Below are positions 1,131 to 58,284 of a stretch of 64,000 nt of DNA, piece by piece; positions within the stretch are counted from its first letter, which is position 1; every line of letters begins with the position of its first letter. A model generated the notes under the pieces. The model did not search any database. It was not told the DNA's origin and was given only the letters and a program-made list of their open reading frames with translations. The DNA is from a virus (lineage: Duplodnaviria > Caudoviricetes). A program made the position numbers and the translations under genes. Location of the stretch: IMG/VR virus record IMGVR_UViG_3300046694_000619; one strand, 5' to 3'.

Positions 1131-1136
1131 GTATAG
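1131..1136 (-). promoter_or_regulatory. CTATAC upstream motif (candidate element-specific promoter)
   Basis: 37 nt upstream of the ATG at 1093; one of about 24 similarly placed copies. Confidence 0.55.
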
Positions 1137-1206
1137 GCTGCGGCCGCGCGAATGAAAAAACCCGGGCAGAAGCCCGGGTGCGAGGAGAAGTACTTGACGA
1201 AGCGCC

Positions 1207-2004
1207 TTACTTCGACGGCTTCGGAGGTTTCTGCGGCAGCTGCGCGATTTCCGCCAGTTCGTAGATGTAGACCTCGACACTGCGCATCTTGAAACCGGAC
1301 GAGTGGCCCTGGTGATTTTCGAACGACGTCACTTTCGACGAAGGCAGGCGCTGGGCAAAAAGCTTCATCAGTGCGTCACGACTCGCGTCGCAGTCACGGA
1401 TTTCCCAGTCACGGCCGTCCTGTTCCAGCACGAAGCCACGCTCCCGGAGACTTGCATGCCAGAGGACACGGCGTTCCTTGTCCGACACGGGAGTGTCCGA
1501 CTGGAAGCTGAAATCGCCGAAGAGCGAACAGCTGAACTTGGCCTTGCAACCATACTTGCCGAACGACAGGTCACTGATGTGGCCAAACCCTTCGAGGTCC
1601 CACCAGCTATTGAGCTGCTCGTCCAACTTTTTCAGACAGGCTTTCGTCACGTCTGGGCCTTGTGCAGCACCGAGCTGTGCCTCGAGCTCGCGAACGCGCA
1701 TGTTTGCCGCGCGCACCCGTGCAAAACGGTTCTCCATCTCGGCCGCAGAATCGGTCTCGATGCCAAGCAATTTTCCCAGGTCGGCCATGCGATGCTCCGC
1801 GACCGACAGGCAATTGGTCGCGAGTCCGCGCGGCAAACCGTCCTTGAACACACTCGCGTCGGGCCCTTTGAGGACGCTTGCGATTGTGCCCATCGCCTGC
1901 TGCAGGTCGAGGATGTGCTTCAAAGCGACCGCTTTCTGGTCGGCATTCAGCTCGATGATGTGGTCGTCACCATCTTCAAGCGGGAGGGTGATTTCGAGTG
2001 TCAT
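1207..2004 (-). CDS. hypothetical protein
   Basis: ORF; start placed at MTLEITL after an AAAGGA RBS; CTATAC at 2039-2044. Confidence 0.75.
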   Translation of the reverse strand: MTLEITLPLEDGDDHIIELNADQKAVALKHILDLQQAMGTIASVLKGPDASVFKDGLPRGLATNCLSVAEHRMADLGKLLGIETDSAAEMENRFARVRAANMRVRELEAQLGAAQGPDVTKACLKKLDEQLNSWWDLEGFGHISDLSFGKYGCKAKFSCSLFGDFSFQSDTPVSDKERRVLWHASLRERGFVLEQDGRDWEIRDCDASRDALMKLFAQRLPSSKVTSFENHQGHSSGFKMRSVEVYIYELAEIAQLPQKPPKPSK

Positions 2005-2104
2005 GGTGTTCCTTTCATGTGTGAGTTGCCCTGACTCTGTATAGCCCGGCGCCCACGACAATATCTAATTACATGGTATACTAATTTCCATCAAACATCT
2101 GGAG

Positions 2105-2737
2105 TTGTCGCGCGTGAGCACTGAAACAAATGAGTCCCCATCGTGGGGTTCGCGGCTGCTGGACACCGCAAAATCGGCCCTGACTTCGGTGTTTCCGGCG
2201 CTTGGCGCCGTCGACGCTGCCAGGGAATTCATCTCGGAAGCCGTGGCGCAAAAGATTCGTAATGAGGCGAGCGTCAAGGCGCAGGCGCTGATTTCGCAGG
2301 CCCACCGCAAGGTCATCTTCTCCATCGTCTGGCAAAACGGCCTGCTCATGCTCTCGCTGGTGCCGGTGTACTTCCTGCGCGCGCCGTGGCCGTTCTACGT
2401 GGCGTACGCCTGCGTGTTCGGCTACTCCACGTATTCGGCTTACGAGTATCGCGGCATCATCTGGCGCCTGTGCAAGACGTTCAGCGTAACCCAGACGTTG
2501 GCGCTCGAGGTGCGCGAAGCCATCGAGACCGAACTGACCTCGCGTCAGTTTTTTGAGCGTAAGGCCGTCGAGTGGCTCGGCCCGGACATGAAACGACTGG
2601 CGGAAGACGTCGCGCGCAAACTCAAGCCGGATGTCATGATGGCCGCGTTCAATATGGCATTTACGCTCTTCACGGCGTTTATCGCGTTCCGGGTGTTCGT
2701 GATTCCGCTGCTCGAGCATCGCGCGCTGATGCATTGA
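2105..2737 (+). CDS. membrane protein, unknown function
   Basis: Three hydrophobic segments; TGGTATACT extended -10 upstream. Confidence 0.7.
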   Translation: MSRVSTETNESPSWGSRLLDTAKSALTSVFPALGAVDAAREFISEAVAQKIRNEASVKAQALISQAHRKVIFSIVWQNGLLMLSLVPVYFLRAPWPFYVAYACVFGYSTYSAYEYRGIIWRLCKTFSVTQTLALEVREAIETELTSRQFFERKAVEWLGPDMKRLAEDVARKLKPDVMMAAFNMAFTLFTAFIAFRVFVIPLLEHRALMH

Positions 2738-2831
2738 GCGACCTTCGCCGGCATCTTCGCCAGAATGGACGAAATAGCATTAAAAGGCTATATTATTATT
2801 TCCTGCAACCATCAGTACAAAGTAAATCCGT

Positions 2832-3212
2832 ATGAACACTGCAAGTGCACAAGGTCTCGTTTCGTTCGCCCCCGGCAAGGTCGTGGCCAGTCTTTCCGCC
2901 GACGAGGTTCGCTGCGCGCTGTCCACCGCAATGGGCTTGGGCGTGGCCCTGGTCCACGTCTCGTATCCGAATGTGGATAGCCGTAATCACAAGAGCCTCG
3001 AGTCGCTGGTGTCGAAGCTCTCGGGTCACGGTTTCGCCGAAACGGCGACGATGGTTCACGAAGAAGTGCCGTATATGGTCTTCAAAGACCTGAAGAAGGC
3101 CCTGAATGTGTACCACGAAATCCAGAAGGATTCGGTGGCCATCTCTGCATCGCTGTATTACGCCGGCGTCACTGGCCTGCAAGCCGAAGCCGCCATTCTG
3201 GCCGCTGCCTAA
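2832..3212 (+). CDS. hypothetical protein
   Basis: 126-aa ORF following an AT-rich promoter region. Confidence 0.65.
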   Translation: MNTASAQGLVSFAPGKVVASLSADEVRCALSTAMGLGVALVHVSYPNVDSRNHKSLESLVSKLSGHGFAETATMVHEEVPYMVFKDLKKALNVYHEIQKDSVAISASLYYAGVTGLQAEAAILAAA

Positions 3213-3271
3213 GGTCGCCTGCCGCCGCGCAAGGTGCGCGGCTTAACTGTTGGCGTTTGCTGGAGAGCGAG

Positions 3272-3637
3272 ATGGCGATAGAGGATGTTGTGTACAACGT
3301 GGACGGCAGCGTTGCTGCGTACCGGATGTCGGATGGTCGCATGCGGGTAAAGCTGCCCACGAGGGCACCGTCTGCGCCGGCAGCTCCAATGGAGCACTCG
3401 TGCACGCCTGACAGCATGGGCGAGATTCCTGCGAGCGCTCACGCCCGCAGGGACCGGGTCCTGGTGTACGCCATCATCCTGCTGGGTTCCGCCGCGCTGG
3501 GACTGTTGGGTGATGTGCCTGGCGGGTACATTCTGCCGCGCGGAATCATGGGGTTCTTCGCCGTGGTCGGCATCACTTCCGTTGTCGTGGACATTCAGCT
3601 GCGTGCTTCTAAGCGCAAGCCGCGCTCGCCTTCGTAA
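3272..3637 (+). CDS. small two-TM membrane protein
   Basis: GGAG RBS, two hydrophobic helices. Confidence 0.6.
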   Translation: MAIEDVVYNVDGSVAAYRMSDGRMRVKLPTRAPSAPAAPMEHSCTPDSMGEIPASAHARRDRVLVYAIILLGSAALGLLGDVPGGYILPRGIMGFFAVVGITSVVVDIQLRASKRKPRSPS

Positions 3638-3691
3638 ATCCGGTGGCCGGTCGACGATATACCGAACAACGACACTTCTGAAGGAACACGC

Positions 3692-4909
3692 ATGACTGCA
3701 ACTCCGCGCAAGCGCCGCTCGAGCGCAAAGGATAGGACGGACACCGCGCCGCCGGCGCTCGCGCCCATCGTCTCTCCGGTTGCGCAGGCCGGTGAGCCGG
3801 TCGAAGACCGTGCGCTGCGCCCCAAGCGCCTCGCAGACTACATCGGTCAGCAGGCGCTGCGCGCGCAGCTTGGCATTTTCCTTAACGCGGCCAAGCATCG
3901 CGCTGAGGCACTCGACCATGTCCTGCTGTCCGGCCCGCCGGGCCTGGGCAAGACGACGCTCGCGCAAATCATCGCTGCCGAGCTCGGCGTCGGCCTCAAG
4001 GTGACGACGGGGCCGGTGCTCGAGAAACCAGGCGACATTGCAGCGCTCCTCACGGGCCTGAACGCGAACGACGTGCTCTTCATCGACGAGATTCACCGGC
4101 TGCCGCCCGTCGTCGAGGAGGTGCTGTATCCGGCGATGGAAGACTACAAGCTCGACATCCTGGTCGGGGAAGGGCAGGAGGCGCGCACGGTGACCGTGCC
4201 GCTGTCGCCCTTTACGCTCGTGGGTGCCACGACGCGCGCGGGCAGTCTCTCGGCGCCGTTGCGCGACCGTTTTGGCATTACCGGTCGCATGGAGTTTTAC
4301 ACAGACGCGGAACTCGAATCCATCGTGACCCGCTCGGCAGGGCTTCTTGGCGTCGGTATGGCGCCGGGCGCCGCGCTCGAGGTCGCCATGCGTTCGCGCG
4401 GCACACCACGTATCGCCAACCGGCTGCTGCGTCGCGTGCGCGACTACGCGACCGTCACCGGGCCGAACCCGAACGAAGTCAGCAACGCCGATGCACAAGC
4501 GGCTCTCGCCATGCTTGGCGTCGACTCGCGCGGGCTGGACTCGATTGACCGCCGGCTACTTCAGGCGATGGTCGACTTTTACGGCGGCGGCCCCGTCGGC
4601 CTGAATACGTTGTGCGCGGCCATCAGCGAAGTAGAAGACACGATTGAGGATGCGGTCGAGCCGTTCCTCATCCAGCAGGGTTTCCTGCAGCGCACGCCGC
4701 GCGGACGCGTCATCACCGAGCTCGGACGCACGCATCTCGGTGCATGTCCTGGTCAGCCACCCGTGCAGGCCTCGCGCAGTGGTGGCCCGGTGTATGTGGG
4801 CGGTATCCAGCCGGCCGGGCAAGGGAAGGGCGCAGTGCTGAAGTTGGACCCGAATGGACTTGGTGTCGTGCGCGACCCGAAAACGGGCGAATACCTGCCG
4901 ACGTATTGA
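3692..4909 (+). CDS. ruvB: Holliday junction branch-migration ATPase RuvB
   Basis: [12 protein letters not shown], Walker [53 protein letters not shown]. Confidence 0.96.
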
Positions 4910-4931
4910 ATACATAAACCGGAGCCAGGAG

Positions 4932-5225
4932 ATGAATCGAATCAAGCAGATGAGCCACGGAATGGATGTCGCGTTCTATGAGCGGCTCGCCACGGTCTTC
5001 GCATACTACGGCGCGATTATGGCGACGGCTCGCTTCTGGCTGGTTCCGGCGTTCGCCTGGGTGGACCAGCATCACCCGCAAGCCCACGAGTACGCGGTGT
5101 GGGCCATGGTATTGCTGCTTTCGCTCGTCGGGGCGGTCCTCCTGGCGCGGACGCTGGCGGCTCCCGCGCCGACGCTCCAACAACCCGCAAGGTACCCGGA
5201 GGTGGTGCGTCCGTTCAGGAATTGA
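4932..5225 (+). CDS. small membrane protein
   Basis: AGGAG RBS, two hydrophobic segments. Confidence 0.6.
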   Translation: MNRIKQMSHGMDVAFYERLATVFAYYGAIMATARFWLVPAFAWVDQHHPQAHEYAVWAMVLLLSLVGAVLLARTLAAPAPTLQQPARYPEVVRPFRN

Positions 5226-5284
5226 TACGGGCTTTCTATACAGGAAAGCAGGACCCATTCAATCAAGGACAGACGGAGCACATC

Positions 5285-5761
5285 ATGCAAAACTGGAAGG
5301 TATGCGGCTCGACTTACAATGGAGCCGTAGCCGTTTTCATTCAGGCTCAGAGCCGCACGGCTGCCATCGAAATCAGCAGCAAGGCGCCACACCTGCTACT
5401 GGTTGTTCGTAGCGCCGAGCTGCGGACTGAAGAGGACGTCTGGCATATCGCCACGAGCCATCTCTGCAGGCAGCACGGCTGGCGCGCCGAGAGCGTACTC
5501 GACAACGTTGTGATGAAGGACTACGACGGTGCTGACGGCTTTACGGAAGCACTTGCCAGCATCCGTTACGGCGTGAAAAGTTCGCAGTTCGTCATGAGCT
5601 GCTCTTACACGCTCGAAGACGGCCATGGCGATTCGTTGCAGCTCATGGCCATTCCGGAATCTGCTTCGAAGGAAGAAATCGAAGCATGTGTGGACGCGTT
5701 CGCTGCCAAGGCGGACACGTTTGTCACCGCGAGCGCTGCCACAGCTTTCGCTCACGGTTGA
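5285..5761 (+). CDS. hypothetical protein (paralog of 5912..6412)
   Basis: MQNWKVCG...HGW...AIPESA...VDAFAA aligns by eye with the next gene. Confidence 0.7.
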   Translation: MQNWKVCGSTYNGAVAVFIQAQSRTAAIEISSKAPHLLLVVRSAELRTEEDVWHIATSHLCRQHGWRAESVLDNVVMKDYDGADGFTEALASIRYGVKSSQFVMSCSYTLEDGHGDSLQLMAIPESASKEEIEACVDAFAAKADTFVTASAATAFAHG

Positions 5762-5911
5762 GATTTGTCTCTCCCTCGCCCAGCGATTCTGCTGGGCTTT
5801 TTCATTTTCAACGCCAGCTGACGTGTTGCCGGTCCTGAGGATTCGGGCGATGTCGGCTATACGCTCACGTAGGAACCTTTAATATTGAGTGAATTGCCCA
5901 GAGGACACATC

Positions 5912-6412
5912 ATGAAAGAATGGCGAGTACGCGGCAGAAGAGATGACTCCATCAAGATTGTGGAAATCATCGTTGAAGCAAAGAGCTGGGCAGGTGCAGT
6001 CGCCGAAGCACAATCGGGAGCGCATCAGCTCAAGGTACGTGATGCGGTGCGTATCGACCTCGAAGCACTGGCAATCGGCCGACTCATCACCGAGCATGGC
6101 TGGATGTCGTACGCGCAGCACCCGTGGAAGTCGTACCGCGACAATCCGATTTTCACTACGAAAGACTTTCCGACCGCAGTCGGCCCGCAAATGGCCGTGA
6201 TTCGCCCGGTTGTGCCCGACAATGGCCTGGCTCAATTGTGGCTCGTTGGCGAGTACATCAGTGAAGGCAATAACGCACTGGTGGGCACGATGGCCATCAT
6301 CCCGCAAGACGCTGACGACGCCGAGGTTTTCCGGCACGTCGACGACTTCGCAGCTTGCGTGGCTCAACGCATCTCCGAAACATACGCCGCGCGCCTTCTG
6401 AAGGCAGTCTGA
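5912..6412 (+). CDS. hypothetical protein (paralog of 5285..5761)
   Basis: MKEWRVRG...HGW...IIPQDA...VDDFAA; GAGGA RBS. Confidence 0.7.
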   Translation: MKEWRVRGRRDDSIKIVEIIVEAKSWAGAVAEAQSGAHQLKVRDAVRIDLEALAIGRLITEHGWMSYAQHPWKSYRDNPIFTTKDFPTAVGPQMAVIRPVVPDNGLAQLWLVGEYISEGNNALVGTMAIIPQDADDAEVFRHVDDFAACVAQRISETYAARLLKAV

Positions 6413-6571
6413 TTCGCACTGACGCAACACCCTCGAGCCCGGCATTCGCTGGGCTTTTTTCTTTGAGAGCCAAGCCCAGTGCGGCTCTCAAGACAATGAC
6501 ACACGCTCTATACCGAATTACGCGAGCGTAACGCTCATCTCGTGCAATCCAGTTCGGAGTATTCATCGACT

Positions 6572-6820
6572 ATGCTTCTCATCATCGCGGCCGCCAGCGT
6601 CACTGGCGGGTTCCTGTTCATTCTCATCGGTGCAATTCTTGAGGTCCGCGCGGCGGTCAAGTTCCAGGCCACGCTGAAAACAAAACTCGGCTTCCTCTCA
6701 TTTCGCCAGCAAATCAAGAAATCCGAATTCGGTCAGATGCATCGCAACGGTCGCATCCTGCGCGCGCTCGGCGTGCTGACCTTCGCGGGTTTCTTTCTCT
6801 GGGCCGGCCTGCACCGGTAA
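6572..6820 (+). CDS. small two-TM protein
   Basis: Hydrophobic N- and C-terminal helices. Confidence 0.55.
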   Translation: MLLIIAAASVTGGFLFILIGAILEVRAAVKFQATLKTKLGFLSFRQQIKKSEFGQMHRNGRILRALGVLTFAGFFLWAGLHR

Positions 6821-6874
6821 CCCACGGCGCAAAAGAAAATCGCCCCATCAAGGAGCGATTTTGAGTTTTGCAGC

Positions 6875-7255
6875 CTAGTCGTAGCGGCGGTTGCAATGCA
6901 GCAGGTCATACGTCTTCATCAGGTCTTGCAGGTTTGCACCTACACGCTTGTCCATCGTGGTGTCCAGAACGCCAATCTGCCGGCAGTTCTTCACATACTG
7001 CGAGTCGATGGAGTAGAGCGCTGCTTCCTTGATGTTGATGATGATTGTGTCCGCATGAAAACCGGTTGCAGCATGAGCAGGGCTCTTGCTGGTCATCAGA
7101 ACGCAACCTTGACGGACTTCACCAGTACGCTCCGGGTTGGTCGACACGGGTGCGACCGCGATGCGGCCGTTGACCATGCCAAGCACAACTGCGGGACGAC
7201 GCTTGCCGTTCGGGTCAGTCGGACGAATAAGGCCAGTGACAACGACGAATTTCAT
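6875..7255 (-). CDS. PemK/MazF-like fold protein
   Basis: GKRRPAVVL...IAVAPVST matches the PemK/MazF KxRPxVV...VxPxT pattern; GGAGG RBS. Confidence 0.55.
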   Translation of the reverse strand: MKFVVVTGLIRPTDPNGKRRPAVVLGMVNGRIAVAPVSTNPERTGEVRQGCVLMTSKSPAHAATGFHADTIIINIKEAALYSIDSQYVKNCRQIGVLDTTMDKRVGANLQDLMKTYDLLHCNRRYD

Positions 7256-7293
7256 GATGTTTGCCTCCAGTAGGCAGCTATTTCCACATAGCC

Positions 7294-7362
7294 GTATAGC
7301 GCCAAATGCGGCAAAATAGCGTGTAATCGGAGGTGTCGCTGGCGCGCCGCGCTGTTCTATAC
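7294..7362. promoter_or_regulatory. back-to-back CTATAC motifs of a divergent gene pair
   Basis: GTATAG 7294-7299 (38 nt from ATG 7255) and CTATAC 7357-7362 (33 nt from ATG 7396). Confidence 0.6.
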
Positions 7363-7395
7363 GGAACATGGCAACAATTAACCAGCGAGGAAGCT

Positions 7396-7884
7396 ATGAA
7401 TCAGGTAATGAGCAGTGCAGTTCACGCAGAGATGGAACAACTTTTCGGTTCGGACGACGCAATCGGCATGCGCGTCATCGTGGATGAGCGGCACCCCGTG
7501 CTGACGATGTCCGAGTTCGAAGCGTTCAAGCAGCAGAACCCCGGTTTCGCAGGCGACTGGCGTGTCGCAATGCCCGACGGCTCGAGTTCGGTCGTTTGTA
7601 CGAACTACGCGAAGCACATCAAGGCCACGCTGAAGCAGCGTAACGTCGAAATCGTAGGCTTCATGTGCTCGGATAATCAGGACTGCACGTTCACGCGTAT
7701 GGACCTGGCTGAAGGGCACGATTTCGCGCTCGTCGACGGTCGCTACCTGGTCGACCCGTGGATGCGTCTTGTCTGCGGCTACGACAACATCCCGATGGTC
7801 TACGACCTGACGAATCAGGCCGAAGCCCAGCAGGCGCATCACATGTACGGTGCGCGTGACCGCTGGGTTCGCGTGGACAAGTAA
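7396..7884 (+). CDS. putative papain/transglutaminase-like Cys-His-Asp enzyme
   Basis: VCTNYA...GHDFALV...LVDPW order resembles a Cys-His-Asp triad. Confidence 0.5.
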   Translation: MNQVMSSAVHAEMEQLFGSDDAIGMRVIVDERHPVLTMSEFEAFKQQNPGFAGDWRVAMPDGSSSVVCTNYAKHIKATLKQRNVEIVGFMCSDNQDCTFTRMDLAEGHDFALVDGRYLVDPWMRLVCGYDNIPMVYDLTNQAEAQQAHHMYGARDRWVRVDK

Positions 7885-7901
7885 GCCTTTCTTAACCTCG
7901 G

Positions 7902-7926
7902 ACCCCGCTTAACCGCGGGGTTTTTT
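7902..7926 (+). terminator. Rho-independent terminator
   Basis: CCCCGC-TTAACC-GCGGGG followed by a T-tract. Confidence 0.8.
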
Positions 7927-7992
7927 CTTTCCTGCTTCACGGGCGCGCAAGCGTTTTGAGCTATACCACAGACGCCACTTATCGCTTCGACC

Positions 7993-9924
7993 ATGCACCT
8001 CACAAACCTGTTTAAAGCTTCGCTGCTGAGCGCGGCGCTCGCGGCAAGCCTCCCGGCATTCGCCTCCGACTATTACGTCGTTGTTCCGGTACCCAATCGC
8101 ACCGCTGCCGGCAACGTTTCGGTGTCGCTCGCCGGGTTCGGCCTGCCCGCGGCGCAGGTCGGTTTGCCGTACGCGGGTTTCGACTTCAGGTCGCTGCTTT
8201 CCGTCACCGGCGACGCCAGCTACAACGGCTATGGCGTTCGCTGGAGTGTGGTCTCGGGCAGCCTGCCGGCGGGCCTGACACTTAACAGCGATGGGACGCT
8301 CACCGGTACGCCGAGCGCGGGGGGCTCGTCGACTTTCCAGGTGATGGCCAGCTACAAGAGCAAGGCGGGCCAGCAGGCGTACCAGATTTATACGGCGGCC
8401 GTCACGGTCGGACTGGCGAGCGGCGCGCCGCCAGTGGGTCTGGTCGGTCAGGCCTATAGCTACGACCTGCGGCCGCTCCTGTCGGTCGCCGGCGACTCGG
8501 CATACACCGGCGCGGGTGTCACGTGGACTGTCGTGTCCAACACGCTGCCCGCGGGCCTCTATCTCACGAGCGACGGATTCATCGGCGGCACGCCGACAGC
8601 GAGCGGTACGGGAAGCGTCACCGCGCGCGCATCATACAAGGGCGTAAACGGCCAGCAGACCTATCAGGTGGTCACGCAGGCCATCAGCGTGACACTCGGC
8701 AGCACGACGCTGCCTGCGGCCTCGCAAGGGATGCCGTACGCTGGCTACGACTTCCGCTCGCTCGTCAGCAGCAACGAGCCGACGTTCCAGCCGGGCAGCA
8801 CAACCTGGTCCGTCGTGGGCACGCTTCCCGCGGGCCTCGCGCTCGATGCGAGCGGGGTGCTAAGCGGCACGCCGACGGCGTCCGGTTCGCAACCCTTCAC
8901 GCTCAAGGCGAGTTACAAGGGCTACGTCGGCCAGCAGACCTACACGCTTATCAGCGCGCCGAGTTCACTGCTTTCCACGTCGACGCCCCCGCTCGCATTC
9001 CCTGGGGTGAGCGACTACACGGTGGCCACGCAACCGGTCACCTTGACCAACAGTGGTGACGCAGCGGGCACCCTGTCCCTGGCCTCCGACTCGCCGAACT
9101 TCACGGTAAGCGGCTGCGCGACGATTGCGGCAAAAAGCAGCTGCACGGCGAACGTCACCTTCTATCCGACTGGCGTTACCAGCTACTCGGCCCAGTTGAC
9201 CGTCAGCGGTGCGACGAGTGGCGACATCAAAGTCGCGCTCTCCGGCTCTGCGGTGGCAAACGTGAAGACGTTTGCTGCGAGCACGAACTGGACGGTGCCC
9301 GCCAAACTCACGCACGCGCAGGTGTTGGTGGTCGGCGGTGGCGGCGGCCCGATGGCCACAGGAAACTTCGTCCCTGGCCTTGGCGGCATTGCCGGGGGTG
9401 GCGGACAGGTCATCTATAACGCGAGCTATTCGCTCACGCCTAACGCCAATATGCCAGTCACCGTGGGTGTTGGCGGCAGTGTCGGGCCGGATGCGCAGGA
9501 GAATGGCACGCCTTCTGTGTTCGGCGCTATTACGGCCTCGGGCGGCTACTCCGGCTACGAAGGTGGTGCATCCGGCGCGGGCTATCCGAGCGGCGGCGGC
9601 GCACAAAACAACCTGCAGGGTGGCGGGGGCGGTGGCGCGGGTGGCGCGGGCGGCGTGCCAAGCGCGACGACGGGCGGCAAGGGCGGAGCAGGTCTTTGCT
9701 ACGCCCTGACCGGGACGATGACCTGCTACGGTGGCGGTGGTGGTGGCGGAGTCGGTACCGACCCGGCGACGCAGACCCCGGGGGGTAACGGAGGCGGTGG
9801 TTTGGGCGGTACGCCAACCATCGTAGGCGGACCGGGCGCGGACAATACCGGCGGTGGCGCGGGCGGCGCGGGCGGCGGCGGTCGCAGTGTTGGCGGCAGC
9901 GGTGTCGTGATTGTCGTGTACTGA
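7993..9924 (+). CDS. secreted Ig-repeat (He_PIG-like) surface protein with glycine-rich C-terminal domain
   Basis: Signal peptide ending AFA-S, three LPAGLxL...GTPT repeats, ASH/Ig-like segment, C-terminal GGSGVVIVVY glycine-rich domain. Confidence 0.8.
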   Translation: MHLTNLFKASLLSAALAASLPAFASDYYVVVPVPNRTAAGNVSVSLAGFGLPAAQVGLPYAGFDFRSLLSVTGDASYNGYGVRWSVVSGSLPAGLTLNSDGTLTGTPSAGGSSTFQVMASYKSKAGQQAYQIYTAAVTVGLASGAPPVGLVGQAYSYDLRPLLSVAGDSAYTGAGVTWTVVSNTLPAGLYLTSDGFIGGTPTASGTGSVTARASYKGVNGQQTYQVVTQAISVTLGSTTLPAASQGMPYAGYDFRSLVSSNEPTFQPGSTTWSVVGTLPAGLALDASGVLSGTPTASGSQPFTLKASYKGYVGQQTYTLISAPSSLLSTSTPPLAFPGVSDYTVATQPVTLTNSGDAAGTLSLASDSPNFTVSGCATIAAKSSCTANVTFYPTGVTSYSAQLTVSGATSGDIKVALSGSAVANVKTFAASTNWTVPAKLTHAQVLVVGGGGGPMATGNFVPGLGGIAGGGGQVIYNASYSLTPNANMPVTVGVGGSVGPDAQENGTPSVFGAITASGGYSGYEGGASGAGYPSGGGAQNNLQGGGGGGAGGAGGVPSATTGGKGGAGLCYALTGTMTCYGGGGGGGVGTDPATQTPGGNGGGGLGGTPTIVGGPGADNTGGGAGGAGGGGRSVGGSGVVIVVY

Positions 9925-10027
9925 CGCGCACCAGGAAATCGAGACGCCTGTTCTTCGGAGCAGGCGTTTTTCTTTTGTGCTCGCGAAAGAAAACGGCCAC
10001 GTGGGCCGTTTGAGAGGGGAGGTATGC

Positions 10028-10348
10028 CTAAAGCATACGGACGTATTTCGCGGCTTCCTGCATCGAAATTTCGAGCCGGTCGCGCAATTTCACGCAGGCC
10101 GATGAGGGGCTGTGCTGTTTCAGGTCCCGGCAGTCGTCGAGGAGGTGCTCGAAGTCAGCCAGTGTGATGATGGCTCCAACCCTCAACGCTTCCCACCATT
10201 TCCGCGCCAGCAGCGCGCGGTCTTCGGCGGTCTCGGCGCTGTGAAGGGCCTCGAGCTCTTCCTCGAGCCCGGCCGCACGTTGACGGAGTTCAGCCAGCTC
10301 AGTTTCAAGCTTCTGGATACGCAACTGTCGCTGTTCCGCAGTACTCAT
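10028..10348 (-). CDS. hypothetical coiled-coil protein
   Basis: Heptad-rich N-terminus; coupled to the upstream gene. Confidence 0.65.
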   Translation of the reverse strand: MSTAEQRQLRIQKLETELAELRQRAAGLEEELEALHSAETAEDRALLARKWWEALRVGAIITLADFEHLLDDCRDLKQHSPSSACVKLRDRLEISMQEAAKYVRML

Positions 10349-10349
10349 C

Positions 10350-10556
10350 TCAGTCCACCTGTTGGCCGCGTATCGACAGAAACTTCCCGTCCTGGTCGAA
10401 GTTGAAAATCGTCATGCCGTCGACCCGTTGGTCTCCCCGGCAGATGATTTGATGCCCCAGTTCGTTGTCGATACATTCGACACCAAAGTCAGCAAGCAGC
10501 GCCTTCAGTTTTTCCTTGTGCGTTGCTGCGGTCGTGTCGTCAATTTGCGTGCTCAT
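10350..10556 (-). CDS. hypothetical protein
   Basis: AAGGAG RBS, CTATAC 31 nt upstream. Confidence 0.6.
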   Translation of the reverse strand: MSTQIDDTTAATHKEKLKALLADFGVECIDNELGHQIICRGDQRVDGMTIFNFDQDGKFLSIRGQQVD

Positions 10557-10617
10557 GGCCGCTCCTTTTTTGTGTTTGCCTGCAAGCGTATAGCAGCCTG
10601 GCAGCTTGCGCGAAAAG

Positions 10618-10650
10618 AAAACCTCCACGGCAGTGCTGCGCGTGGAGGTG
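10618..10650 (-). terminator. terminator hairpin (near-copy at 18731..18765)
   Basis: ACCTCCACG...CGTGGAGGT with A-tract. Confidence 0.7.
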
Positions 10651-10665
10651 GTGAGGTGCTACGTG

Positions 10666-11037
10666 TCAGCCGCAGAGGTATTCTTCGGCGGCAGTCACAA
10701 CCTGGCGTGCATCGTCGACAGCTACGCGAGTGGCAGCCTGAACTGCTTCCTCGGTGCCGGCAACCTTGCCGCTGGCGATTTGACCTTCGATGAGCTGCGT
10801 TGCAACTGAACGGATACGTTCCTGGTTGGCTGCCGGGTAGTGCGCCAGCTGACGCATGCACGCGTCCAGAGTGACAACGACCTGGCAAGCCTCCATGAAA
10901 GCTTGGGGCAATGCTGCCTTGATGGCGGTCTCGGACTCGGCAACCGTACCCTTGTTCACCTTGAGTTCGAGCAGGCGCGTGAAGGTAGCCTTGATACGCG
11001 GTTGCTCGTCTTCGGTGTAACCGGACAACTTCGACAT
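10666..11037 (-). CDS. hypothetical alpha-helical protein
   Basis: AAAGGAGG RBS before MSKLSGY. Confidence 0.7.
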   Translation of the reverse strand: MSKLSGYTEDEQPRIKATFTRLLELKVNKGTVAESETAIKAALPQAFMEACQVVVTLDACMRQLAHYPAANQERIRSVATQLIEGQIASGKVAGTEEAVQAATRVAVDDARQVVTAAEEYLCG

Positions 11038-11048
11038 GAAACCTCCTT

Positions 11049-11854: not shown

Positions 11855-11882
11855 CTTCTTCCTCCGTTATCGGTTTTTCTGG

Positions 11883-12458: not shown

Positions 12459-12477
12459 TTTTCTATCCTCCGGGTTG

Positions 12478-13113: not shown

Positions 13114-13305
13114 ACCCTACCTCCAGATGTGTTGTTTCCTCTGGAGTCGTATAGAGAAATACGAAGGCTCGAACTTGCCCGGAAGTTGACAAATACGTAT
13201 TGTACGGTAATCTATGTGACGTTGCCAGTTAACGCTGAGGCTCCGTCCGGATGGATGTTGCTGTCAAAACGCTATACGATTGACCCAACAATCAAGGAGT
13301 GCCCC

Positions 13306-13608: not shown

Positions 13609-13696
13609 GCCCTCCCCCTTGCGCGCCTCAATGAAAAAACCGCGACCATGAAGGCCGCGGTTGAGGTGCAGTTTGAGTCCGAGGTTACGCCAGAGA

Positions 13697-14819: not shown

Positions 14820-14895
14820 GTATAGCTCGTGGCCACACGCGCGCCGCCGGCCGGCGCATCCGAGGGCAGAACATGACCGGGTGCGCGAGCTATAC
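14820..14895. promoter_or_regulatory. back-to-back CTATAC motifs of a divergent gene pair
   Basis: GTATAG 14820-14825 (34 nt from ATG 14785) and CTATAC 14890-14895 (27 nt from ATG 14923). Confidence 0.6.
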
Positions 14896-14922
14896 GAATG
14901 ACTTCAATTTCGGGGGCTCTCC

Positions 14923-18636: not shown

Positions 18637-18788
18637 GAAAAATCCCTTTGGGACGGACGTGCGTCAGCGACCTGGGTTACAGGCCAACTTGGTAGTTGGT
18701 ATAGCGTTGAAAGAGCTCAGCGTTTCGATGAAAAAACCTCCATGGCATCGCTGCGCATGGAGGTGTGAGGGTTGGTGCTTGAAGTGGC

Positions 18789-19475
18789 CTAGAAGTCTAG
18801 GACGATGACCTTCAGCGGTTCAATCGTGCGCGGCTCGGGCGGCTGCTTGTCGAGCCACGTCCGGTACGGCCCTTGGGCATAGCCGAACAGCTCGTGTTCG
18901 CGGATGATGGTCCAGGACCACGGACCGATTTTCCCGAGCGTCAAGGCCACCTGTCGCAGCCAGTGGCTGAGTGCGGGACTTGCGTCTATACGCGCCTTGA
19001 GGCTTGCGGTTGCGGCTTCATCACGTCCCATCTTGTTTTCGCCGGCGGGCACGCGACACGCGACGGCACCATATCTTCGCCGGTTGCGGTCCCGTTCGTT
19101 GCAGACTTGGATGTCGCAGCGTTCGGTTTGATGCGCTGTAAAAAACGCCTTCATTTCGAACAGCATCTCGCGGAACTCGACGAGCTCCAGCGACGGATGC
19201 ACCGCGGGTAGCAGCAGGAGCTTTGCCAGGTTCAGCGTGAGCATCGTGCCGCGTTCAACGGGCGTCAACTCGAGGTCAATTTCCGTAATGGCTTTCTTGA
19301 TGGCATCCAGTCGCAGGTTTGCGGTCGGCAGGTCCATGAACATGGCGGCTAGATACTCGCGCGCCTGGTCTTTCGTGCGCACGGGTTCCCGGTCATCTGC
19401 GATAAAGATGATTTTGCCATCTGCGTCGGCCGAGGCGATGAGAGTCAGCAGTGTGTCGGTGTTGGTTCTGAGCAT
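18789..19475 (-). CDS. hypothetical protein
   Basis: GGAGG RBS, CTATAC 36 nt upstream. Confidence 0.7.
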   Translation of the reverse strand: MLRTNTDTLLTLIASADADGKIIFIADDREPVRTKDQAREYLAAMFMDLPTANLRLDAIKKAITEIDLELTPVERGTMLTLNLAKLLLLPAVHPSLELVEFREMLFEMKAFFTAHQTERCDIQVCNERDRNRRRYGAVACRVPAGENKMGRDEAATASLKARIDASPALSHWLRQVALTLGKIGPWSWTIIREHELFGYAQGPYRTWLDKQPPEPRTIEPLKVIVLDF

Positions 19476-19620
19476 GATGTTTCCTCCGTGAATGTTAGAC
19501 TAATCCAATCCGTATAGAAGAAAAACGAGAGCCTCCAAACGCAAGGCGTAGGGAGGCTCAAGGTGTTGGACTGCGTCAGTCTGGACGAACAGTTAGCACG
19601 CGCCGACGGACATCGTCGGC

Positions 19621-25189: not shown

Positions 25190-25385
25190 GCGATTCCCTG
25201 TAGCGTTCAAGTGATGATTTGAACTATACTATCAAATGCGTATAAACGCAAGTTACCTCTCAATATCGGTCCGCGTACGGTAGGTGTTTTGAGTGACGCA
25301 TACCGTCAAACGCAAACCTGTCAACCATCGCCTCTATACTGATTTGCAGCAATTTCGCTGTTAATAAATAGAGGAAACATTCATC

Positions 25386-31382: not shown

Positions 31383-31464
31383 GGCTGTGTCCTCCTTGGT
31401 TGATAAGCCCATAGCCGTATAGCGCGATGCGCCGGCCGGGCATCAACGAGAAGGTCGTTTTGCG

Positions 31465-33768: not shown

Positions 33769-33892
33769 TCGGAAAGCTCCTTGAATTAACGTCATTATAC
33801 CATGAAATAACGTATAACGCAAAACGCTCCCCAATGACAAAAGGCGCGAAGCCTCGTGGGCCTCGCGCCTTTCTTGCAGCAGCAGCGGGGGA

Positions 33893-34645: not shown

Positions 34646-34751
34646 GTAGATTCCTTTTGCGTGTGGTTCGGAGTGGAGTCGGCGCGGCGCGCCGCTCCAG
34701 GAATTAGGGGTGCAACAAAGCGTTTAGTATAACACAAAACGCTACCTGAAG

Positions 34752-36553: not shown

Positions 36554-36848
36554 GAGAAGCCTCGATAGGGAGTTTTTGTAGTATACCACCGCAATGGCAT
36601 TTGTCAATGTCGCCAGGCGGATAGGGCCTATTTCGCAGCCAGCGGACTTTGGTTGGCGATAGATATACCAAAAAACATGAAATGCGCCGAGCCCTGCTGC
36701 TCAGTAGCCGCCGGCCACAGGCAACGCAATGGCCGACCTCACCGGGCGGTCTGGTTTCCTTATGCGAGGCAGGCGCCTTGCCATGTGCGCACGCACGCGA
36801 TAGGGCTGGGGATGTGCAACTGGTAAGGTCTTGAAAACCAGACGTCGC

Positions 36849-38828: not shown

Positions 38829-38937
38829 AAGGAATTGCGTCTAGTATACCATGAAAACAGATTTTGCGGCAGTAGATTGCTTGACCTTAAAAAGCATTCG
38901 GGCACAATAGTCACGCCTATAACAAGGGAGAATTGAC

Positions 38938-41665: not shown

Positions 41666-41753
41666 AGAGTCGCGACCCACTACGAAGCGCCCAGCTTGGC
41701 TGGGCGTTTTGCATTTTATGTGGTATAATGTCACCATCCAATCAACGAGTTAA

Positions 41754-45114: not shown

Positions 45115-45327
45115 CTGAAAAGCTCCTGATTAACGGTGATTTCCTTTTCGGCCTGAGCGGCCTGAGAGGCTAGGCATTTGCCTGGTTGCCCGATTTGTAT
45201 AGCGTGTCGTGCGCTGGACGCTACCGTTGCGCGCAGCCCCTGGCTGTCCTGCACAAAGTAACGAAGTAGGCGGGTCGGTTTTCCCTATACGAGTTGAGTC
45301 ATCAACTTTAAGAGGGAGGACATAGCG

Positions 45328-47508: not shown

Positions 47509-47619
47509 CCTCCACGCCACGGGATTTCTCCGTGGCGTTTTTTTCATCCTCGGGCTGAAGATTTCCAAGCCTCCCGGTTGGCTATACGGACTGTGTGGTC
47601 AACTAACCTGGAGGTCAAT

Positions 47620-49504: not shown

Positions 49505-49575
49505 TGCCCCCCCGGAAGGCTCAGCGAGCTATACCTCGTAGCAGCATGTGCGGTCTAACCAACGAGGAAAAGGCT

Positions 49576-49812
49576 ATGAGCCAGAAGAAGCTGAAGCAGG
49601 TCATCGCGGTTATCACGTTCGAGGACAACGGCGACAATATCCTGGGGTTGAGCGACGCCGCAACATGGCTGGACGGCAAGCTGCGCTCCTCCGGTACTGC
49701 GGTCGAAACGCTCGAAGTGACGACATTCACAACCGCGGCGCACGCGGCGCAAGCCGAGACCGAGCGCTCCGGCGACTTTGCGCTCGACGCAGAACGCCTG
49801 CTCGGGCACTGA
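49576..49812 (+). CDS. hypothetical protein
   Basis: GAGGA RBS; CTATAC 41 nt upstream. Confidence 0.6.
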   Translation: MSQKKLKQVIAVITFEDNGDNILGLSDAATWLDGKLRSSGTAVETLEVTTFTTAAHAAQAETERSGDFALDAERLLGH

Positions 49813-50125: not shown

Positions 50126-50420
50126 CGTGTTTGACAGGGTGTGCGTGCGGTCGCGACGCGAGGAATTCAAGGAAGTCGCAGGTTTAGGCTTCCCGGTCAC
50201 AAGTATATCGTAAAAAGGCGTGTTGTCGAGTTTGAGCCTATCAAGGTCGGGCAGCCAGGGAGTGAGTTGTGCTGCCACGCACTTGCTACCTTCAGGTAAT
50301 GGCGTCAGGTGCACGCTCACATCGGGCGGGCTGGTGAGCCTTAGTCGTTTGTTGTGTTTTACGTAAAATGTGCTATAATGCTAGTTAATTATTCAATTTC
50401 TGCCTTCCGAGGAAACGCCC

Positions 50421-51677: not shown

Positions 51678-51789
51678 AAAACGGGCTGTTAACTTACGCG
51701 TTATTTGCGATAAAGAACCTTTCTGTGGTATAATGCTACTCATCAGTTAAGGTTCAGCCGTTTCCACAACACTATTTGCCGAGAAAATC

Positions 51790-52899: not shown

Positions 52900-53091
52900 T
52901 TCTCCAAAGCCGGCCGGGGCCAACGCTCTGGCCGGTTTGTCTTTTTGGCCTATCGAAACAACAGGCCAAACGTATAACATAAAACACGTTTCAAGCACGC
53001 AAATGCGTTGCTGTGCAAGCTGTTTTCTGTTATAATGAAGTCATTAGTAGTTCATCACGAATAACATTAAACGCCGATACGAGGTAGGACC

Positions 53092-54159: not shown

Positions 54160-54374
54160 CCTGAAGCCTGTCGACTAGCCAGGCGCCAGTGCGAGTTCAC
54201 GTATTGCGCATTTAACGATATACCATAGTAATTAGGCCTTCTTTCTGTTCCTGTTATGTTTGTTTTGTGCTATAATGGGAACCATGCACTGATTAGTTCT
54301 ACTTGCCGGTAGCAGTGCTCGAAAACCACATCATTGCCAGCGCAGCTGGTACAAATTCTACGGGACGTTAGAAA

Positions 54375-55815: not shown

Positions 55816-56112
55816 TTAGACCGGCAAGGCATTCTCGACGGGGGAATCCTCAACGAGCCAGCCGGGAAGACCAGCACGCATGCAGGCAGCCGCGGACGCG
55901 CCACTTGGGCCATCGTCAGGCACCACTTCTACCAGTTTGACGTCGGCGGGGGCAGGAGTCGACCAGGTCTCCATGTAGTCACGCGCGTCAGCTTCGGAAG
56001 GGAAGGTGACTGCCGAGGGCTGACCCGCAGCATCCAGGTTCGTCCAGAAGCCCAGACCGAAACACTCACCCAGGAACACGCCATTCTCTTTGCTATAAAT
56101 GACCACAGCCAT
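55816..56112 (-). CDS. hypothetical protein
   Basis: GGAG RBS; CTATAC 46 nt upstream. Confidence 0.65.
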   Translation of the reverse strand: MAVVIYSKENGVFLGECFGLGFWTNLDAAGQPSAVTFPSEADARDYMETWSTPAPADVKLVEVVPDDGPSGASAAACMRAGLPGWLVEDSPVENALPV

Positions 56113-56286
56113 TGCATTTCTCCAGTTTTGTCCACGAATTTTACAAGGTACTCACGCAGTATAGGGTTCGCCTGGCGCAAACCCGGGCACCCAGAGAAAG
56201 TGTTCGCATCATCCGCTTGACCGGCGACTATACTTAGATGTAAAATGCGATTAACGATTAACAATCAACCAACAAAAACCATCACC

Positions 56287-57165
56287 ATGAACCACATTGC
56301 ACTGCACTCGTTCACCGCCGAAGGCGACATGACCAGCTACCCGGACATCCAGTTCATGTCGTTCCCGGGTGGCGAGCGCCACGCCCGTCTGCCGGTTGAC
56401 GACATCCTGCTCGCAGGCCCGGTGTCCTTCTGGAGCATCGAAGCGCGCGTATACACGCCGGCTGACATCATGGACCTGATGCTCGTCACGGACGCACTGC
56501 GCCGGGTGATTCCCGCAGGCAGCATACTGAAGCTCGTGATGCCCTACGTGCCGTACGCCCGCCAGGACCGTGTGGCCGTGGACGGCGAGCCGCTCTCGAT
56601 TGCGGTCTTCTGCAACCTCATCAATGCCCTGGCCTTCGACCAGGTCGAAATCTGGGACCCGCACAGCGACGTGACGCCCGCGCTCATCAAGAATGTGCGC
56701 ATCCGTCCGACGCGCGACCTGATGTTTGCTGCGTTCGGCATGAAGGGCGGGGCAAGCCTGCTGCGCGACTGCGCGTTCGTCGCCCCCGACGCTGGCGCCC
56801 GCAAGCGTGTCTCGACGCTCGCCAAGATGTTCAACACCGACGTTGTGTTCGCCGACAAGAAGCGCGACCCGGTAACGGGCAAGCTCTCGGGCGCGCAGGT
56901 ACAGGGCGATGTGCCCGCGAAGCCGCTGCTCGTGGTCGATGACATCTGTGACGGTGGCGGCACCTTCATTGAACTGGCCCGCGTGCTGCGCGAAAAGACG
57001 GACCAGCCGCTGTACCTCTATGTCACGCACGGCCTGTTCACGAAAGGCCTGGAGCCGCTCAAGGCCGCCTACGCTGGCGTGTTCTCGGCGAACTGCCGTG
57101 ATGCAGAAATCGCGAGCCAGCTCGGGATTTTCGAATCGGCTGAACTCGAAGGCGTGAGTTCCTGA
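56287..57165 (+). CDS. ribose-phosphate pyrophosphokinase-like protein (Prs or ADPR-PP synthetase Adps)
   Basis: FPGGE, PYARQDR, DPHS, APDAGA, KKRD, VDDICDGGGT, THG. Confidence 0.9.
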   Translation: MNHIALHSFTAEGDMTSYPDIQFMSFPGGERHARLPVDDILLAGPVSFWSIEARVYTPADIMDLMLVTDALRRVIPAGSILKLVMPYVPYARQDRVAVDGEPLSIAVFCNLINALAFDQVEIWDPHSDVTPALIKNVRIRPTRDLMFAAFGMKGGASLLRDCAFVAPDAGARKRVSTLAKMFNTDVVFADKKRDPVTGKLSGAQVQGDVPAKPLLVVDDICDGGGTFIELARVLREKTDQPLYLYVTHGLFTKGLEPLKAAYAGVFSANCRDAEIASQLGIFESAELEGVSS

Positions 57166-57236
57166 CCAAAAGTCTTTGACAAAATCGCATAGTATGAAAT
57201 ACGATTTTCGACTTCACAAGTCACCCAATCATTAGC

Positions 57237-58163
57237 ATGCCCGAATCGGTGTTGTCCGGCCCCAGCTACGTTTACGCACTCTGTGACCCGCGCAAGCCAC
57301 TTGATGACGCGAGAGGGTTGCCTTACGAGCCGTTCTACATTGGGAAAGGTTCTGAGCGGCGAGTGTTTGCTCACTTTCGGAACGGAGTCTACCAGAACAC
57401 ATACAACCCTCATAAGACGAGGAAGTTGAAGCGAATCCGAGCAGAGTGTGGTCGAGATGCCTTGATAGTGTTTATTCGTGACGGCCTGACCGACGCTGCA
57501 GCATATGAACTGGAGGCTGTCCTCGTCGGCCAATGGGGCCGTCTGAACGATGGTACTGGCGTATTAACAAACGTGACAGCGGGCGGCACTGTTTTGAGCG
57601 AAAAGGCGTACGCGCCCGAAGTTATTCGAAAAGTTGCAGCGAGCCGGAAGGGAATACCGCTGACTGAGCAGCATAAGGAAAGCATCCGACGAAGGGCTAT
57701 CGGTCGTCGGCCTTCTGATGAGACGAAAGAGAAGATTCGCATGGCGCGCCTGACGCGCGCGGTACCGGTCTCCGACGAGACGCGGGAGAAATTGCGAGTG
57801 GTGCATTCGGGCAAGCCTAAGCCTGTGGGCTTCGGGCAACGAGTGAGTGAAGCAAAGCAAGGCAAGCCCAGGCCCGACAACGTAGGCAGGCTGAGTAAGC
57901 CGGTTTCGATGTATGGTGTCGATGGTTTGCTCCTTGCGACATATCCGAGTGCTCGCATTGCGTGGGATGTTACTGGCGTCGACTACAAGGCTATCAGTGC
58001 TTGTTGTACCGGAGCTCAAAAAACCTGCTGGAAGGCCGACAAGTTGGTCACCTTCAGATTCGGGGCGGCGGACGAAATTGAACAATTGAAATTGGCCAGC
58101 CGGGGTCGCCATGTTTGCCGGGCTCCAAGAATTGTCTCAAAGAAGAGGCTGGAGCCACTTTAG
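57237..58163 (+). CDS. free-standing GIY-YIG homing endonuclease with NUMOD3/NUMOD1-like repeats
   Basis: YVYAL..FYIGKG...R, LTN; SDETKEKIR and SDETREKLR repeats; KPVSMY...YPSA...AISACC; lower GC. Confidence 0.85.
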   Translation: MPESVLSGPSYVYALCDPRKPLDDARGLPYEPFYIGKGSERRVFAHFRNGVYQNTYNPHKTRKLKRIRAECGRDALIVFIRDGLTDAAAYELEAVLVGQWGRLNDGTGVLTNVTAGGTVLSEKAYAPEVIRKVAASRKGIPLTEQHKESIRRRAIGRRPSDETKEKIRMARLTRAVPVSDETREKLRVVHSGKPKPVGFGQRVSEAKQGKPRPDNVGRLSKPVSMYGVDGLLLATYPSARIAWDVTGVDYKAISACCTGAQKTCWKADKLVTFRFGAADEIEQLKLASRGRHVCRAPRIVSKKRLEPL

Positions 58164-58256
58164 AGATTGAGCCCTAGCCGCCAAGGCTAGCTGTCCCGCA
58201 TAACGCACGGCCGCAACCTTCGAATTGCGACGCAGAAGTCAAATGCACAAAACTGT

Positions 58257-58284
58257 TTGACATAGAAAGCTTTTGTGCTATACT
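58257..58284 (+). promoter_or_regulatory. sigma70 promoter of the Nampt-like gene
   Basis: TTGACA-16-TATACT with TG extension. Confidence 0.75.

Follow-up and report, generated by a model that had tools for sequence, protein, structure and literature searches.

Does a hexamer that stands in front of gene after gene of one mobile element mark a promoter class of that element's own, and if so, what reads it? The question is raised by a stretch of 64,000 nucleotides from the IMG/VR virus record IMGVR_UViG_3300046694_000619 (the whole stretch is called the window below), in which the exact sequence CTATAC recurs upstream of about 24 genes. A first-pass annotation had proposed two transcription programmes for this DNA, one of them read by an element-encoded sigma factor, activator or RNA polymerase. 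On the evidence given below, CTATAC is probably the -10-like core of a lineage-specific promoter class that is independent of a -35 element.

CTATAC was counted on both strands of the window, which has 60% GC and ribosome-binding sites of the GGAGG type. The gene model was crude: longest open reading frames with a third-position GC bias, their starts refined by Shine-Dalgarno sequences. The sites and strands listed in the first-pass annotation were all recovered, giving 26 exact copies. Its caution over the raw count is explained by the zero-order expectation from base composition, which is 18; this caution does not hold against 100 dinucleotide-preserving shuffles, which gave 5.4 ± 2.3 copies (maximum 11). 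Its view that position and orientation carry the signal was well founded: 22 of the 26 copies are intergenic (16% of positions are, by the crude gene model), and 20 have a start codon on their own strand 15-100 nt downstream, a placement open to 3.8% of (position, strand) pairs (binomial P 8e-24). Among all 4096 hexamers CTATAC ranks first in this oriented upstream class, followed by its own overlaps GCTATA and TATACG. The 18 one-mismatch variants are nearly absent from such positions, except for a few TTATAC, GTATAC and CTATAA that are part of TGnTATACT or TATAAT boxes. The signal is thus stronger than had been supposed.

From the end of the motif to the start codon, 26-62 nt were measured (82 nt in one case, median about 36), as described before, and a recount of the base 3' of the motif in 24 window sites (G 12, C 5, A 3, T 4) agrees with the earlier statement that it is not T in 20 of them. 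In the crude model 62 genes have 40 nt or more of free DNA upstream; 21 of them carry CTATAC, 11 carry sigma-70-like elements only, and the remainder, including several model artefacts, are unassigned. Judged on this gene model, CTATAC would head one in three, or more, of the element's separately transcribed genes. Most of the genes so headed are orphans, joined by two genes for large immunoglobulin-repeat proteins and one for a PAPS-reductase-domain protein.

Five divergent gene pairs carry back-to-back copies, as had been noticed at first pass (distances to the start codon in brackets): 7294..7299 on the minus strand (38 nt, ATG of 6875-7255) with 7357..7362 on the plus strand (33 nt, ATG of 7396-7884); 13149..13154, minus (35 nt, ATG of 12478-13113) with 13272..13277, plus (28 nt, GTG of 13306-13608); 14820..14825, minus (34 nt, ATG of 13697-14785) with 14890..14895, plus (27 nt, ATG of 14923-15243); 45197..45202, minus (82 nt, ATG of 44833-45114) with 45285..45290, plus (37 nt, ATG of the PAPS-reductase-domain gene 45328-47508); and 56159..56164, minus and followed by T (46 nt, ATG of 55816-56112) with 56228..56233, plus.

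The motif also often directly follows a terminator, another early observation that a terminator scan bore out at five sites. The copy at 1131..1136 (minus, 37 nt to the ATG of 704-1093) lies about 14 nt past the T-run of the terminator 1179-1160. Terminators at 5778-5797, 6435-6456, 7900-7923 and 19547-19531 precede, respectively, the copies at 5857..5862 (plus, 49 nt to the ATG of 5912-6412), 6508..6513 (plus, 58 or 28 nt to the start of 6572/6542-6820), 7961..7966 (plus, 26 nt to the ATG of 7993-9924) and 19512..19517 (minus, 36 nt to the ATG of 18789-19475). At 18699..18704 (minus, 62 nt to the ATG of 16615-18636) and 47582..47587 (plus, 32 nt to the ATG of 47620-47901) a preceding terminator was recognised by reading of the sequence. 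Both large He_PIG proteins, the one with a glycine-rich head (7993-9924) and the one with an RCC1 head (16615-18636), are thus preceded by CTATAC, and a He_PIG homologue in a Burkholderia multivorans relative has a like promoter type (L059, 17913). The remaining well-placed copies are 2039..2044 (minus, 34 nt to the ATG of 1207-2004, which encodes a conserved megaplasmid protein, P0107), 5236..5241 (plus, 43 nt to the ATG of 5285-5761), 10588..10593 (minus, 31 nt to the ATG of 10350-10556), 31417..31422 (minus, 34 nt to the ATG of 30939-31382) and 49529..49534 (plus, 41 nt to the ATG of 49576-49812).

A few copies are of doubtful class. The one at 25334..25339 (plus), 46 nt before the ATG of the class II ribonucleotide reductase gene 25386-27620, is followed by T and is ambiguous, as it reads TATACT. 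Two copies had been singled out before as lying inside a coding sequence or poorly placed, and they are as stated: 18986..18991 (plus) is inside and antisense to the gene 18789-19475 and is probably a chance copy, while 25224..25229 (plus, followed by T) is 156 nt away from the reductase ATG. Besides its two CTATAC-T copies, the region upstream of the reductase (25190-25385) contains repeated ACGCAA-type words, GTATAAACGCAAG and GTCAAACGCAAAC, which could be operator sites, e.g., NrdR-like ones. Two of the four CTATAC-T copies of the window are, judged by the elements around them, sigma-70 promoters. One, at 56228, is located within the spacer of a sigma-70-type TTGACC-N18-TAAAAT pair in front of a Prs-like gene and is probably not a member of the class; the other, at 58278, is contained in TGCTATACT (58276..58284, plus), a sigma-70 extended -10 with TTGACA 16 nt upstream, which precedes a gene of the NAPRTase family. 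Both sigma-70 forms are kept in B. ubonensis.

The motif is conserved where its surroundings are not. Homologues of the PAPS-reductase-domain protein, 60-95% identical, are located on contigs of about 0.18-0.64 Mb from B. multivorans, B. ubonensis, B. cenocepacia and Paraburkholderia aspalathi with gene order kept, and the window belongs to a family of plasmid-like elements of about 0.3-0.64 Mb in Burkholderia and Paraburkholderia. We compared the upstream regions of this gene in the window, B. multivorans (84% protein identity), P. aspalathi (80%), B. ubonensis (63%) and a 572 kb metagenomic contig of 55.5% GC (L139, 60%). In all five lineages CTATAC stands 31-37 nt before the ATG, and in the 100-nt upstream alignment, whose mean identity is 49%, the only invariant runs are the six motif columns, the ribosome-binding site and the ATG. 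No motif was found in front of a 45%-identical homologue on another plasmid type (L140). On the B. multivorans element (L059), 22 kb contain 12 copies, nine of them upstream-oriented, and the hexamer again ranks first.

A distant complete relative is plasmid 2 of Variovorax sp. SRS16 (NZ_LR594667.1, 801 kb), which is conjugative and has F-type transfer genes. Of about 85 window proteins 13 have counterparts on it, the reductase among them at 76% identity. The first 800,000 of its 801,406 bases were read. They contain 147 copies of CTATAC. Of these, 96 fall in intergenic DNA, which makes up 18% of the sequence, and 62 are upstream-oriented, with G as the next base in 37 of the 62. The fourth position is free here: the plasmid-wide upstream-oriented counts are 62 for CTATAC, 59 for CTACAC, 46 for CTAGAC and 39 for CTAAAC, 206 CTAnAC sites in total, distributed along its entire length. 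Their logo reads T(-3) n G(-1) CTAnAC G ... A(+11) and shows no -35; T at -7 occurs in 20 of the 206 sites, G being preferred. Nine of the sites were compared with the RefSeq annotation and lie 26-57 nt before annotated starts, including that of traN. The motif family therefore reaches across two host families or more, Burkholderiaceae and Comamonadaceae among them, and its stringency is clade-specific: the Burkholderia and Paraburkholderia elements use strict CTATAC, the 0.8 Mb Variovorax plasmids a relaxed CTAnAC. Two other words, GGCTAAA (upstream-oriented in 32 of 72 copies) and CTATAGG (in 28 of 68), are likewise strongly enriched before genes of the Variovorax plasmid and may be further variants of the CTAnAC class or another class.

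Which features of the sites suggest a promoter core? The absence of a shared -35, noted at first pass, is borne out by alignments of the 24 window sites, where no position from -50 to -4 exceeds 0.3 bit; among the 206 Variovorax sites none exceeds 0.1 bit. We also pooled 42 sites of the CTATAC type (class B) from the window and its relatives. Between -50 and -2 none of their positions is informative; at -1 G stands in 23 and A in none; the base after the motif is G in 26 and T in 2, a T count that is biased, as four CTATAC-T sites had already been set aside as sigma-70-type; and purines dominate 7-8 nt downstream of the motif. This is consistent with an extended consensus (not A)-CTATAC-G-R. 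In the Variovorax set an A (58%) after a pyrimidine (59%) is found 6 nt past the motif, which looks like a start-site signature.

The motif is strand-specific and stands at a fairly constant distance from the start codon, and the element encodes an NYN-domain protein. These observations would also suit an RNA element, in which CUAUAC acts in the 5' leader, either as a site of nuclease processing (e.g., by the NYN-CSD protein) or as a regulator site, and the promoters lie further upstream. There is no space for them at two places: the copy at 1131 lies too close to the T-run of its terminator, and the 64 nt between the divergent copies at 14820 and 14890 (14826-14889) are about 75% GC with zero TA dinucleotides, although the genes on both sides require a promoter. 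This argues for a promoter core and not an RNA element, and so does the Variovorax A after a pyrimidine, placed as for a start site. As no other conservation is found upstream either, we consider the RNA reading very improbable.

Still less credit can be given to presentation of the motif in a hairpin loop, to be read as single-stranded DNA in the manner of F-plasmid Frpo or phage N4 virion-polymerase promoters. A few copies (5236, 7357, 49529) do have flanking complements of 4-5 bp. The mean flanking stem, however, measures 2.05 bp, and random intergenic positions give 1.92 ± 0.24 bp (P = 0.31); stems of at least 4 bp occur at 3 of 22 sites against 1.6 expected. With stems no longer than at random intergenic positions, this presentation was rejected.

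Reading of all intergenic gaps in the window revealed a second promoter class (class A), an extended -10 of the form TGnTATAAT or TGnTATACT, sometimes with TTGACA. TGnTATAAT had been reported for the ligA and glycosyltransferase loci, and it is indeed found there: TGGTATAAT at 41721..41729 (plus) precedes ligA, and in the glycosyltransferase cluster four genes are preceded by TGCTATAAT at 50371..50379 (plus, GT2 glycosyltransferase gene), TGGTATAAT at 51726..51734 (plus), TGTTATAAT at 53028..53036 (plus) and TGCTATAAT at 54268..54276 (plus, UDP-glucose dehydrogenase gene). Class A further precedes the operon 2114-5225, which includes a RuvB-like gene (TGGTATACT at 2074..2082, plus), the NAPRTase-family gene mentioned above, and four minus-strand units at 33.8-38.9 kb (TGGTATAAT at 33794..33802, TGTTATACT at 34726..34734, TGGTATACT at 36580..36588 and at 38843..38851). 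The H-NS-like and integrase genes show sigma-70-type -35/-10 pairs in their intergenic gaps. Ordinary sigma-70 extended -10 promoters would drive ligA, the NAD-salvage genes, the glycosyltransferases, the integrase and the H-NS-like gene. Of the two proposed transcription programmes, the two classes themselves can be upheld at the cis level (CTATAC without a -35, TGnTATAAT/TATACT with its extended -10); an element-encoded reader is not supported so far.

The existence of class A bears on a simpler explanation, namely that the CTATAC sites are housekeeping sigma-70 promoters with an odd -10 box and the element runs a single programme. TATAC is close to TATAAT and TATACT, class A itself often uses TATACT, and a few CTATAC-T sites do have TG or a -35 (58278, 56228). 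Yet class B lacks both a -35 and a TG at -15/-14 (G as such is enriched at -14), and 20 of the 24 window sites have a base other than T at -7. A sigma-70 consensus scan of positions 1-20000 gave 5 sites against 4.5 expected by chance, none of them at the 14 CTATAC copies located there, and the exact hexamer is kept far tighter than is usual for sigma-70 boxes. In the host genus, primary start sites of B. cenocepacia have TAnAAT as -10 and TTGCC as -35 (PMC4603805), from which class B departs both in its lack of a -35 and in its preference for G over T at -7. We therefore regard this explanation as quite improbable.

Is the motif a property of Burkholderiales DNA in general? Upstream-oriented CTATAC amounts to 31 per 100 kb in the window and 41 in the B. 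multivorans element L059. On the Variovorax plasmid the figures are 7 for CTATAC (86 kb sampled) and 26 for CTAnAC (whole plasmid). Three other plasmids gave 0 (pBMUL01, a resident B. multivorans plasmid), 2 (Methylibium pPM1) and 0 (Azospira pAZI09). The first-pass annotation had asked about equal frequency on the host chromosome; 710 kb from four Burkholderiales chromosomes, other than those of the actual hosts, gave 0-2 per 100 kb. Whole-record counts of CTATAC against the reversed pattern were 30 vs 52 for pBMUL01, 23 vs 43 for pPM1, 38 vs 110 for pAZI09 and 147 vs 90 for the Variovorax plasmid, and CTATACG showed no excess over its reversed control in nearly all of 121 Burkholderiales genomes; such k-mer counts of chromosomes would miss a small host regulon. 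Viral contigs sharing the reductase (up to 76% identity) were not enriched for CTATAC as a group, and none of the 13 checked had the motif before genes. Taken together, these controls support the view that the CTATAC class belongs to the element lineage and not to Burkholderiales DNA at large.

We also tried P0107 as a marker of the motif and rejected it: CTATACG shows no enrichment on five megaplasmids bearing P0107, from Pseudomonas sp. FeN3W, Cupriavidus campinensis and B. gladioli and the plasmids pMPPla107 and P. aeruginosa pPAG5. On the C. campinensis plasmid (NZ_CP043439.1) CTATACG occurs 19 times against 35 for the control, yet with a strong strand bias of 16 forward to 3 reverse.

What, then, could read the motif? 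The proposal of an element-encoded sigma factor, activator or RNA polymerase failed to find a candidate in the window proteins scanned or on the complete Variovorax plasmid. The window proteins, scanned with Pfam and PHROG, contain no sigma or polymerase domain, T7-type polymerases included, and none of 20 scanned gave a gp55-type PHROG match. Six-frame profile searches of the 801 kb Variovorax plasmid found no Sigma70_r2 (PF04542), no RNA polymerase beta domain, no T7-type polymerase (PF00940; the T7 positive control matched) and no member of the gp55 family (phrog_234) at E <= 10 (T4 positive control 2.5e-70). The TIGR02937 matches on this plasmid are Xre-type helix-turn-helix proteins only, and the weak sigma-region-4 matches were discarded as belonging to transposases or to Xre-type helix-turn-helix proteins. 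Proteins common to the window family and the Variovorax plasmid were likewise considered as candidate readers; they comprise the reductase, LigA, NMNAT, a Nudix protein, the H-NS-like protein, a metallophosphatase, the PAPS-reductase-domain protein, P0107 and a phosphatase-like protein, and none of them resembles a transcription factor.

A host sigma factor of the RpoS type would need no plasmid factor and would make a large share of plasmid expression dependent on stationary phase or stress. The RpoS-selective extended -10 of Escherichia coli is KCTAYRC-TTAA, and RpoS promoters tolerate loss of the -35. GCTATAC, placed at -14 to -8, fits this box at seven of seven positions, so that a host sigma is conceivable; the frequent G and absent A at position -1 agree with it, as do the missing sigma or polymerase gene on the Variovorax relative and the blindness of the chromosome controls to a small host regulon. 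T at -7 is nearly invariant for group 1 and 2 sigmas; here it is depleted (20 of 206 Variovorax sites and, with the bias noted above, 2 of 42 pooled ones) and G is preferred. The downstream TAA is missing. Six positions are near-invariant in the Burkholderia lineage, whereas RpoS promoters are degenerate; the resident B. multivorans plasmid and megaplasmids of related hosts do not use the motif, and the strictness varies by element clade (CTATAC vs CTAnAC). A host alternative sigma, with RpoS as the best candidate by sequence, is thus a possible but rather unlikely reader.

An unrecognised plasmid-encoded specificity factor, encoded beyond the window or too divergent for the profiles, is a serious candidate in our opinion, if short of an even bet, and somewhat more likely than a host sigma. 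Host RpoD acting with a plasmid co-factor, or plain sigma-70, seems improbable. More broadly, we tentatively put forward that Burkholderiales megaplasmids of 0.3-0.8 Mb may encode a novel type of initiation factor, missed by current profiles, that either steers the host RNA polymerase to minimal CTATAC/CTAnAC promoters or is a polymerase acting on them itself.

Several points weigh against a private promoter class. That the complete Variovorax relative shows no recognisable gene for a sigma factor or a polymerase weakens the part of the proposal that concerns private machinery, and the RpoS-like heptamer GCTATAC has the same tendency. Six to seven conserved bases amount to about 12-14 bits, which is little for a stand-alone promoter, and the gene models are crude. 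In the lower-GC relative L139 the motif is followed by T in 5 of 9 copies, so some CTATAC sites may be plain TATACT boxes; this T-rich next base also suggests a reader that ignores the position and does not require G. Even so, we consider it likely that CTATAC is a genuine lineage-specific promoter core. It would act as a -10-like melting core without need of a -35, recognised by the bacterial RNA polymerase with, we infer, a specificity factor other than the housekeeping sigma, and transcription would start about 6-8 nt past the motif, leaving leaders of 20-55 nt.

As for the element itself, most window proteins are orphans with neither a Pfam nor a PHROG match. The recognisable genes encode a class II ribonucleotide reductase, an NAD-dependent ligase, a tyrosine recombinase, an H-NS-family protein, a RuvB-like ATPase, an NYN-CSD protein, Prs-like and NAPRTase-family proteins, glycosyltransferases, UDP-glucose dehydrogenase and two large He_PIG repeat proteins. 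Scanning the window for Rfam families and for tRNAs gave no match. The 24 runs listed as carrying 5100-15000 are all DNA, from rhizosphere or soil metagenomes, and none is RNA. No close DNA relatives of the window were found in phage or plasmid collections, a scan of species-representative genomes found only a distant PAPS-reductase relative, a search of 401 Burkholderiales genomes found no member of the element family, and two other window proteins had no relatives among viral contigs. The element resembles a megaplasmid more than a phage and is best placed in a group of giant Burkholderiales plasmids that are probably conjugative and carry some phage-like cargo.

Several of its genes have a distribution of their own. 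A GIY-YIG/NUMOD3 homing-endonuclease-like gene (57237-58163, plus) sits between the Prs-like and NAPRTase-family genes; it is missing from the B. ubonensis (L061) and L139 relatives, where these two genes are adjacent. The reductase (25386-27620, plus) is 76% identical to the copy of the Variovorax plasmids (83343-85568) and to one on a 129 kb 'viral' contig (IMG/VR L003), while the other shared genes have 25-50% identity, far below that of the reductase, which suggests its recent horizontal exchange. The orphan P0107 (1207-2004, minus) belongs to a family present on 107 Pseudomonas records, including pMPPla107 and P. aeruginosa plasmids of 0.4-0.5 Mb, and further on Cupriavidus, B. gladioli and even Bacillus and Clostridium plasmids. 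P0108 (63007-63435, plus) is a small protein with an HCxxGxxRS signature and a weak DSPc match; its gene adjoins the PAPS-reductase-domain gene both on the Variovorax plasmid and in L139, a conserved arrangement, and the two proteins may form a functional pair.

If a plasmid factor reads the motif, these giant plasmids would run their own gene programme in several host genera, a private regulon of about 100-200 genes insulated from host regulation, by means of a new type of initiation factor; if a host sigma does, this would be a new specificity in Burkholderiales. In either case 62 to 206 transcription units of the Variovorax plasmid, and probably about as many on the Burkholderia elements, have candidate cores lacking both a -35 and T at -7, two features that holoenzymes of the sigma-70 family normally require. 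In practical terms, the motif marks starts of transcription units in poorly annotated elements and helps to correct gene starts. It also offers a cheap testable handle, as cultured Variovorax and Burkholderia strains carry relatives.

None of the papers searched describes CTATAC as a promoter motif of bacteria. Phages are well known to have private promoter classes; to our knowledge plasmids are not. What we describe would be an alternative, element-restricted promoter class, considerably more novel if a new type of initiation factor underlies it. Among known systems, housekeeping sigma-70 promoters have a -35 element 16-18 nt upstream and T at -7, neither of which is typical of CTATAC (T in 4 of 24 window sites). 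Extended -10 sigma-70 promoters also function without a good -35 and resemble class B in the enriched G at -14; they differ by T at -15 and T at -7, and the true extended -10 class is a separate one in the window. Promoters of extracytoplasmic function (group 4) sigmas differ by their GAAC-like -35, and the Variovorax searches gave no PF04542 or TIGR02937 match beyond Xre-type helix-turn-helix proteins. RpoS promoters share G/T at -14, C at -13, TATAC at -12 to -8 and -35 independence with class B. In this comparison the invariant C at -13 follows from how the motif is defined, G stands at -14 in 23 of 42 sites and A in none, and the final T of TAYRCT is not conserved; class B differs by G over T at -7, the lack of TAA after the box, near-invariance and restriction to one plasmid lineage in the sampled DNA.

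T7-type promoters contain CTATA by the start site, then G, and are private to the carrier element, as here; they conserve about 17-23 bp (-17 to +6) against 6-8 bp in class B, and the Variovorax plasmid has no PF00940 polymerase. The -10 element of Caulobacter sigma-73 promoters is GCTANAWC, with a TTGACGS -35, and it serves housekeeping transcription in an alphaproteobacterium. The GCTAnA core and the C in place of T near the 3' end are alike, especially in comparison with Variovorax GCTAnAC; the sigma-73 element is one base longer, has a -35 and belongs to host housekeeping, while class B is plasmid-restricted. Late promoters of phage T4 have the sequence TATAAATA and are recognised by gp55 together with gp33 and the sliding clamp. 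The first-pass annotation had compared the CTATAC sites with phage middle or late promoters. We take the comparison as one of architecture and not of mechanism. The sequence is another one, the element here looks like a megaplasmid, its complete Variovorax relative has no gp55 homologue, and class B is not known to depend on replication or a clamp. As an architectural analogy the comparison is fair: both are short, near-invariant -10-only elements with no -35, serve many short transcription units and coexist with sigma-70 promoters in the same genome, and CTAnAC, as judged from the Variovorax logo, ends about 6 nt before the probable start of transcription, as the T4 late element does.

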